From a virus (taxonomy: Duplodnaviria > Heunggongvirae > Uroviricota > Caudoviricetes): a stretch of DNA of 30,348 bases. The DNA lies in IMG/VR virus record IMGVR_UViG_2568526312_000003. One strand, given 5' to 3'. The notes under the pieces were generated by a model. It was not told where the DNA came from and ran no database searches. It worked only from the letters and a program-made list of their open reading frames with translations. Shown here in pieces: positions 7,488 through 7,976 of the stretch (positions are counted from its first letter, which is position 1; each line of letters opens with the position of its first letter). A program made the translations under genes and the position numbers.

Positions 7488-7638
7488 ATCCCCCTCACCC
7501 CACCAGCCATGACAAAGTTAAGACGCGCCAGGCAGTGGAAAAGCAAATAGCAACCAGCATTAGTGAAAATGAAATGCCGACGATTACACAGAGGATCTTC
7601 GCCAGCGTTATGAGCTTGTCTGACATGCTTAATCCTCT

Positions 7639-7821
7639 TCACGATTTCAACGCAATGACCAGTTTTGCCAGCCCATACAGCATCGGAGACACAGCAATAC
7701 CGACCGCCACCCACTTAATAGCAAAAGCCAGCGCTCTGCTGACGTCATCAGTTACAGGCGCTTTCAGTTCAAGGCCGTTTTTCATAGTCAATCTCAACAG
7801 AATTCGTTTATACTTTCCCAT
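7639..7821 (-). CDS. hypothetical small tail-anchored membrane protein (start uncertain; six-frame ORF extends to 7899)
   Basis: Good SD (aagggag) before the ATG at 7821; C-terminal hydrophobic segment AFAIKWVAVGIAVSPMLYGLAKLVIAL; sits in a 490-bp gap between R and Rz. Confidence 0.3.
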   Translation of the reverse strand: MGKYKRILLRLTMKNGLELKAPVTDDVSRALAFAIKWVAVGIAVSPMLYGLAKLVIALKS

Positions 7822-7855
7822 GTTCTCCCTTGCCTTACTCAAGGTCAGAAACACA

Positions 7856-7885
7856 AAACCCCGTTTGCGGCCAACAAACGGGGTT
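7856..7885. terminator. hairpin with U-runs on both strands (terminator-like) just downstream of R
   Basis: ccccgtttg / caaacgggg 9-bp stem, followed by ttttactttt on plus and ttttgtgtt on minus. Confidence 0.5.
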
Positions 7886-7976
7886 TTACTTTTATTCACT
7901 TAGTTTTTGCCAGTTCGCAGGATTTCGTGTTATCCGCCAGTGTGAGCAAACCGCATTTTTCAGCAAAATATTCTGC

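Follow-up and report, generated by a model that had tools for sequence, protein, structure and literature searches.

Two small membrane-protein genes and a terminator-type hairpin between the endolysin and spanin genes of prophage Sp14

Anatomy of the gap between R and Rz

The DNA analysed here, a 30,348-nucleotide virus record (IMG/VR IMGVR_UViG_2568526312_000003; hereafter the window), matches gene for gene prophage Sp14 of Escherichia coli O157:H7 Sakai (NC_002695.2), and many E. coli O157:H7 chromosomes contain the region at 100% identity. Window positions equal Sakai positions minus 2,684,232. Our subject is the interval between the endolysin gene R and the spanin gene Rz of the Sp14 lysis cassette, whose genes all lie on the minus strand. 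In lambda R and Rz abut; here they are separated by 489 bp (7488-7976), which hold two small open reading frames (ORFs), ORF60 and ORF43, and a hairpin of the intrinsic-terminator type. The features of this interval and its borders are as follows, with protein lengths in amino acids (aa).

7977-8510, minus: R, phage lysozyme/endolysin (ECs_2741, annotated; Pfam PF00959, E 1.5e-24), left border of the gap
7891-7976, minus: spacer after R, outside the exchangeable cassette, common to ant-carrying phages
7855-7887, both strands: intrinsic-terminator-type hairpin at the left end of the cassette (terminator scan, fold, conservation)
7822-7854, minus: 34-nt ORF60 leader with a small CCTTG/CAAGG stem and an AGGGAG Shine-Dalgarno sequence at 7825-7830 (fold, conservation)
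7639-7821, minus: ORF60 (ECs_2740, WP_001303555.1), 60 aa, RefSeq coding sequence; PHROG 1115 over residues 1-60 (E 6.6e-42)
7495-7626, minus: ORF43 (ECs_5740, WP_001280929.1), 43 aa, RefSeq coding sequence; PHROG 4906 over residues 1-43 (E 7.3e-24)
7484-7714, minus: 76-aa frame of the original prediction, not a gene (open in 3/18 unique modules)
7020-7487, minus: Rz i-spanin, right border of the gap (Pfam PF03245, E 2e-46; Sakai annotation ECs_2738/ECs_2739 for Rz plus Rz1)
7082-7267, minus: Rz1 o-spanin, embedded within Rz (Sakai annotation)

By alignment, the gap consists of three parts: the spacer, a 264-bp exchangeable cassette and ORF43. The 3' end of R together with the spacer (7891-8010) is 92% identical to prophage Sp12 and 87% identical to phage 86, a phage carrying Shiga toxin (Stx) 2. 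This homology stops just before the hairpin, restarts exactly at the start of ORF43 and continues into Rz. Because the homology to both breaks there, we define the exchangeable unit as 7627-7890 (264 bp: hairpin, leader and ORF60); aligning the R-Rz junction with related phages, the check suggested with the original prediction, thus gave cassette boundaries at 7627 and 7890. In Stx phages an ant cassette of about 770 bp replaces the hairpin/leader/ORF60 unit, while ORF43 remains with Rz and is found behind ant in Sakai Sp11 and Sp12. The original prediction described a 490-bp insertion. The gap is there, as an exchange slot of 489 bp, but it is not a single insertion: only about 264 bp exchange, and the spacer and ORF43 are common to ant-type phages.

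The slot has been filled in several ways. Downstream of ORF60 relatives we found ORF43 and then Rz, Rz directly, or ORF43 and then a 60-aa lipoprotein gene; in one alternative arrangement the stop codon of an ORF60-like gene overlaps the Rz start and ORF43 is absent. Another variant (locus L004, 1590-2140, minus; also L136-L148) has the same hairpin in front of four mini-ORFs, which encode a membrane peptide of 31 aa, a homologue of ORF43 and two C-terminal pieces of ORF60, 38 and 28 aa long and from different lineages; in arrays of this type the last mini-ORF overlaps the Rz start. PHROG 3246 was apparently built from a mis-called 90-aa frame across this four-mini-ORF arrangement. None of the relatives fetched had an empty R-Rz slot, all being filled by ORF60, ant or mini-ORF arrays. 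Judging from these alignments, the supposed insertion is composite, and the slot is a point of exchange prone to recombination. The content of the gap is a recurrent feature of such phages, not a one-off insertion.

Two parts of these arrangements deserve separate mention. In two-holin cassettes with a GH108-like endolysin (L102 2855-3037 and about 35 other loci), the 60-aa lipoprotein follows ORF60 and ORF43 at the place of Rz; it carries the lipobox LLVGC and belongs to PHROG 7528, a family of unknown function, and no recognisable spanin was seen in these loci. The fold of the 86-nt spacer of Sp14 is not significant (z -0.68). At 7921-7941 the spacer has GCGGATAACA, which matches the core of lac operator O1 over 10 nt, and GCTCACA at a distance of 5 nt; this may be due to chance. 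The motif CGGATAACAC(G/A)AAATC is conserved in divergent relatives and forms a 7-bp stem there.

ORF60, ORF43 and the conserved hairpin

Conservation and codon-level selection identify both ORF60 and ORF43 as genuine genes for very small membrane proteins. The ratio of nonsynonymous to synonymous substitution (dN/dS) for ORF60 was 0.25 in frame, versus 0.61 and 2.67 in the other frames (35 unique full-length sequences), and its variable sites were distributed 14/3/30 over the three codon positions. For ORF43, the in-frame ratio was 0.27 versus 0.76 and 1.74 (26 unique full-length sequences), with variable sites distributed 22/12/26. In both families the length and many residues of the hydrophobic helix are invariant down to about 50-65% identity, and conservation of the membrane helices is well above what a plain anchor needs. 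The minus-strand Shine-Dalgarno sequence and the ORF of about 60 aa with a hydrophobic C-terminal half that the original prediction described therefore belong to a real membrane-protein gene.

The AlphaFold model of ORF60 (mean predicted local distance difference test score, pLDDT, 72) consists of a basic helix (residues 3-14), a loop and a long helix (22-59). Eight Lys/Arg residues lie before the hydrophobic core against one after it, a distribution that suggests a cytoplasmic N-terminus. A longer, 86-aa version of ORF60 starting at a GTG was considered and rejected, as the added stretch consists of the hairpin and leader and the Shine-Dalgarno sequence serves the ATG at 7821. In divergent lineages with an extra leader (loci L169, L087 and L179), an 8-codon leader ORF (MCREVCSL or MGREVLSL) lies about 30 nt upstream of an ORF60-like GTG start. 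The stop codon of this leader ORF overlaps the GTG, and a 5-bp stem (AGGGA/TCCCT) covers the second ribosome-binding site. From this comparison, the lineage of the window seems to have lost 27 nt, fusing the leader ATG to ORF60.

ORF43, which was absent from the original description, has its own Shine-Dalgarno sequence (AGAGGA, 7633-7638) and is predicted to form a single strongly hydrophobic helix (residues 11-29) with no charged tail. Its stop codon lies 7 nt upstream of the Rz ATG, and its end contains the Shine-Dalgarno sequence of Rz. Full-length homologues lie upstream of Rz in 276 phage records, mostly of Stx phages and often unannotated. The original prediction had instead pointed to an overlapping second frame at 7484-7714. 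The ATGA overlap with the Rz start that it noted does exist, but the frame is open in only 3 of 18 unique variants, is not conserved, and has a dN/dS of 1.74 over the ORF43 stretch. We also considered ORF43 as a duplicate of the Rz membrane helix and found no similarity. ORF60 (residues 38-49) and ORF43 (14-25) have in common a VGI[AS]xS stretch of the small-xxx-small type found in helix packing; a profile relationship between the two families was rejected, as this weak stretch alone matched, with a probability of 7%.

Both proteins belong to narrow families. Homologues are confined to Escherichia and Salmonella prophages, and a profile search of 1.84 billion representative proteins gave only 25 clusters. 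Sequence searches of Pfam, NCBIfam, PADLOC and PDB found no match for either protein. Within E. coli the cassette is common, being present in 1,682 of 5,426 complete genomes (~31%) in up to 7 copies per genome, and it was found on 15 of 72,556 plasmids.

Existing annotation lists both gene products as hypothetical proteins, and ribosome profiling (RIBOseq) flagged one of the families in 2017. A literature search by locus tag returned nothing for either gene, and neither sequence matched among the entries listed in a start-site compilation for strain EDL933 (PMC10469882). The Sp10 homologue of ORF43, XECs191, is listed among the translated novel genes in the Sakai RIBOseq study and is predicted there to be an inner-membrane protein; in LB medium it had an RNA level of 30.0 and a footprint level of 12.6 reads per kilobase per million (RPKM), a ribosome coverage value of 0.43 and a coverage of 0.55 (PMC5597208). 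In the same study, the Sp14 holin gene ECs2743 is among the short annotated genes that passed the translation threshold and ECs2740 is not, an absence of little weight, since reads from repeated prophage genes cannot be placed unambiguously (PMC5597208).

The hairpin, with U-runs on both strands as originally described, was found at 7855-7887. Its G+C-rich stem of 13-15 bp is flanked by an A-tract before it and a T-tract after it, and it folds with -24.6 to -28.7 kcal/mol (z -3.5 to -4.3). Almost every full-length ORF60 homologue has it upstream, at a distance of 34 nt from the start codon, or of 62-66 nt in the extra-leader lineages. Among 23 distinct variants, 93% of cells were paired and 4 pairs had changed on both sides, giving a covariation score above 500/500 shuffles and above all slid controls. 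In silico, the element thus behaves as an intrinsic terminator by scan match, stable fold and conserved structure. The A-tract and the T-tract are both conserved, suggesting that it is able to terminate in both directions. Hairpin and ORF60 are both beyond chance, the one recurring with a covarying stem and the other being under purifying selection in frame.

Homology among cassettes begins at the hairpin, even behind unrelated endolysins, and in one variant different cargo follows it, which suggests that the hairpin is a unit in its own right. The 34-nt leader next to it is nearly invariant across loci whose ORF60 proteins share only ~50% identity. No known RNA family was found by Rfam in the R-Rz gap. 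The scan reported a second terminator-like site at 7727-7743 (minus) inside ORF60, reading GTCAGCAGAGCGCTGGC and then TTTTGCTATT, which is probably a by-product of the coding sequence.

Expression, proposed role and competing explanations

A promoter scan of 7488-7976 found nothing promoter-like on the sense strand, and the distance from hairpin to ribosome-binding site is too short to hold a promoter. Since the terminator also lies upstream of the genes, this points to expression from the late transcript. In lambdoid late operons, Q-modified RNA polymerase reads through intrinsic terminators, and a Q antiterminator gene is present about 6 kb upstream in Sp14. We tentatively favour a reading, held with confidence that falls a little short of even, in which ORF60 and ORF43 are accessory lysis membrane proteins made from the Q-antiterminated late transcript and affecting the timing or efficiency of lysis. 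The hairpin would stop ordinary, unmodified RNA polymerase arriving from upstream, so that both peptides would be made solely from the antiterminated transcript, along with the holin, endolysin and Rz/Rz1. Both would be inner-membrane proteins with a cytoplasmic N-terminus and would act at the lysis step as accessory factors. We infer the late-only expression, this topology and any effect on lysis. The original prediction had asked how Rz and Rz1 are expressed behind a terminator. The standard answer would be the same Q-dependent read-through, because a Q gene lies upstream and Q-modified polymerase ignores terminators.

The position of ORF60 favours a late, lysis-linked role over lysogenic conversion, because an endolysin gene ends at most 420 nt upstream in 120 of the 131 unique viral-contig contexts (92%). 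These endolysins are mutually unrelated: a GH24 signal-anchor type, a GH108-like cytoplasmic type with different holins, and an M15 peptidase. The Sp14 endolysin itself has a Gly/Ala-rich N-terminal segment resembling a signal-anchor-release sequence. Because the peptides travel with unrelated holins, endolysins and outer-membrane genes, their target would more likely be a component of the host or of membranes in general than any single lysis protein of the phage.

Neither peptide resembles an established lysis protein. We found no match to a Pfam, NCBIfam or PHROG lysis-category family that would make them a holin or antiholin; the charged part of ORF60 is N-terminal, and an S21-type holin is already present in the cassette. 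As spanins they lack a lipobox, leave only 4 (ORF60) or 14 (ORF43) residues after the membrane helix, and are separate from Rz/Rz1. Pfam gave no match to releasin (DUF2730) at E<=1 for ORF60, whose domain order is the opposite.

Several points weigh against the accessory-lysis reading. Similarity to holin, antiholin, releasin or spanin families is lacking for both peptides; the slot also takes ant and arrays of truncated mini-ORFs; and the portability of the peptides across unrelated cassettes argues against a specific lysis-protein partner. A hot spot of recombination at the terminator, instead of function, could account for the position of ORF60 behind endolysins, and the low-level translation of the ORF43 homologue in uninduced cells could be lysogen expression, not spontaneous induction. 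In addition, an IS629 element between Q and the holin gene may impair late expression in Sp14 itself.

One alternative, compatible with a late role in lysis, is that ORF60 encodes a peptide toxic to the membrane whose synthesis is restrained by a cis-antisense RNA, as in type I systems such as hok/mok/sok. Its 60 aa with one long hydrophobic helix fit the size of a type I toxin, and two candidate elements were found on the opposite strand:

7785-7814, plus: hypothetical sigma-70 promoter-like site TAGTCA-18-TATACT, antisense to ORF60 codons 3-13 (9/12 match)
7820-7893 (Sakai 2692052-2692125), plus: predicted antisense RNA of ~74 nt ending at the hairpin, proposed from the promoter-like site and the terminator

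The RNA would pair with the ORF60 leader, Shine-Dalgarno sequence and start codon, and in the older lineages would also cover the coupled 8-codon leader ORF. In the lysogen it would keep leaky translation off, and late transcription would then outpace it. Consistent with this, three divergent lineages have a promoter-like site at the homologous position, each with a 10/12 match (TAGTCA/TATAAT, TAGACA/TATACT, TGGACA/TATACT). Across 76 unique sequences the -10 hexamer changes at its fifth, least critical position alone (TATACT, TATAAT, TATAGT), and the Tyr codon is TAT in 76/76. The hairpin has a T-run on the plus strand too, and the folding prediction gives the RNA a stem-loop at its 5' end followed by the terminator (z -4.3). 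At the nucleotide level, conservation is highest from the hairpin through the leader to codon 18, with a synonymous diversity of 0.073 in codons 1-18 versus 0.173 in the rest of ORF60 (2.4-fold lower). The overlap of leader stop and GTG start in the divergent lineages, with a stem over the second Shine-Dalgarno sequence, recalls the coupling of mok and hok, and silencing would fit the absence of ECs2740 from the list of short translated genes that has the Sp14 holin.

Set against this, a 9/12 promoter match occurs at chance frequency in the region (3 found, 4.0 expected), and the hexamers are mostly fixed by conserved K-Y-K and L-T-M codons, leaving about one informative synonymous site. Identical 5' blocks beside strongly diverged 3' parts resemble recombination mosaics. 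The scan gave no promoter of its own for the ORF60 mRNA, whereas known type I systems have one; the predicted antisense RNA has no Rfam family, and crosslinking and analysis of cDNA (CRAC) for Hfq gave no peak at Sakai 2692052-2692125. The cassette is hardly ever plasmid-borne, and truncated ORF60 copies without the antisense region persist. We therefore regard this explanation as unlikely. Equally improbable in our estimate is a more elaborate version, a new lysis-cassette module in which a membrane-active peptide is gated by an internal antisense RNA, in older lineages by way of the coupled 8-codon leader ORF, and insulated by a bidirectional terminator, with ORF43 as a fifth lysis component of Stx phages acting with Rz.

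More doubtful still is that both peptides serve lysogenic conversion, for example superinfection exclusion or envelope protection, being expressed in the prophage state and placed in the lysis cassette merely because the slot tolerates inserts. In favour of this, exclusion factors are commonly small membrane proteins with a single pass, unrelated genes such as ant can occupy the slot, and the ORF43 homologue is translated at a low level in uninduced cultures. However, the scan showed no sense promoter, a terminator directly precedes ORF60, and PADLOC gave no match. An autonomous conversion gene would not be expected to follow an endolysin across three cassette types, nor to show the start/stop juxtaposition with Rz. 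The related proposal in the original prediction of a moron-type insert fails on similar grounds: a sense promoter upstream was not found, and the terminator lies upstream, not downstream, of the gene, ORF43 and Rz following ORF60 without one. Least probable of the explanations considered is that the ORFs lack a lysis function of their own, either as linkage passengers at a recombination-prone terminator or, for ORF43, as a translated leader that feeds the Rz start after insertions broke the coupling of R and Rz. Repeated shuffling, truncation and reordering of mini-ORFs in the slot fit passengers, but the amino-acid sequences are under purifying selection, and both families have a conserved length and many invariant residues. 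The 7-nt distance from the ORF43 stop to the Rz ATG, with the Rz Shine-Dalgarno sequence within the ORF43 end, fits a leader, but conservation of the peptide is not expected of a mere leader.

Neighbouring features and related systems

Upstream of R, the Sp14 lysis cassette continues with two further genes:

8561-8905, minus: YdfR/DUF1327 gene, 114 aa, between holin and endolysin
8910-9116, minus: S21-type holin

The YdfR/DUF1327 gene is a second interruption of the cassette, and in Stx2 phage 86 the homologous slot is occupied by an 806-bp YdfR-family gene. A strong terminator-like hairpin (9171-9197, minus; 11 pairs followed by TTTTGTTTTC) sits between IS629 and the holin gene, about 55 nt upstream of the holin start. 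IS629 (IS3 family; 9382-10691) lies in the opposite orientation between a nanS-p-like esterase gene and the holin gene, a place within the late operon where it separates the lysis genes from Q. It contains an Rfam match to the ALIL frameshift pseudoknot (9717-9833), and it may be polar on expression of the Sp14 lysis genes. Further Rfam matches are the small RNA STnc100 and, downstream of Q, three tRNA genes (12718-12890, minus; 13664-13910, minus). The sok antitoxin RNA matches at 16826-17000 (minus), adjoining the MokC/HokC genes of Sp14, for which the coding sequence ECs_2754 is at about 16676-16888.

On the other side of Rz, a very A+T-rich stretch of 460 bp without a convincing gene (6560-7020) separates it from pchC (6241-6555, minus); related phages have bor at the equivalent place, between the pchC side and Rz. 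A published small RNA, HnrS, comes from the Rz-to-terminase region of Sp12, with copies in Sp9 and Sp10 according to the same paper. HnrS (EcOnc10-12) was rejected as an element of the gap, as it lies downstream of Rz in Sp9, Sp10 and Sp12 and has no copy in the window. The other Hfq-bound small RNAs of Sakai prophages were set aside too: EcOnc33 is antisense to the esterase gene, and there is no EcOnc peak in the Sp14 gap.

The nearest known thing to the Sp14 cassette is the ant cassette (933W/Sp5-type, Stx2 phage 86, Sakai Sp6/Sp11/Sp12), which occupies exactly the same slot with the same R-side spacer and the same ORF43-Rz unit. Its cargo, however, is an unrelated soluble protein of 189 aa, and the hairpin/leader/ORF60 unit is absent there. 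The closest functional analogues are accessory membrane proteins of lysis cassettes (P2 LysA, antiholins and Mu releasin), none of which shares the sequence or layout of ORF60 and ORF43. The P2 gene lysA encodes a non-essential membrane protein, is located between the endolysin gene K and the spanin genes lysB/lysC, and is reported to affect lysis timing. ORF60 and ORF43 are likewise membrane-protein genes between the endolysin and spanin genes of a lysis cassette, but LysA is larger, with several membrane helices, and no sequence relation was found. Mu gp25 releasin (DUF2730) and the antiholins are small membrane-tethered accessories that tune endolysin release or holin triggering. ORF60 reverses the releasin layout, with the cytoplasmic part first and the membrane helix last, and, unlike releasin and the antiholins, it accompanies signal-anchor as well as cytoplasmic endolysins, and holins that are unrelated to one another.

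As in hok/mok/sok, ORF60 is a small hydrophobic peptide, a leader ORF overlaps its start in the older lineages, and a short antisense RNA is possible; unlike hok/mok/sok, it has neither its own promoter nor a fold-back 3' element, its antisense RNA is predicted only, and there is no sequence or Rfam similarity. In P22 sar/ant and P1 c4/icd/ant, a short antisense RNA from within or next to the target is aimed at a ribosome-binding site, in one case by way of a coupled leader ORF. Those RNAs control soluble regulators in immunity regions, whereas here a hypothetical RNA would act on a membrane peptide in a late operon.

The usual description of the lysis cassette in lambdoid and Stx phages comprises holin, endolysin and Rz/Rz1; the Sp14 cassette has two further conserved parts. 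If either protein alters the timing or efficiency of lysis, this would bear on the release of Shiga toxin, which depends on phage lysis, and would add a component to the paradigm. If neither acts in lysis, the locus would still be a clear, terminator-marked exchange point inside a late operon.

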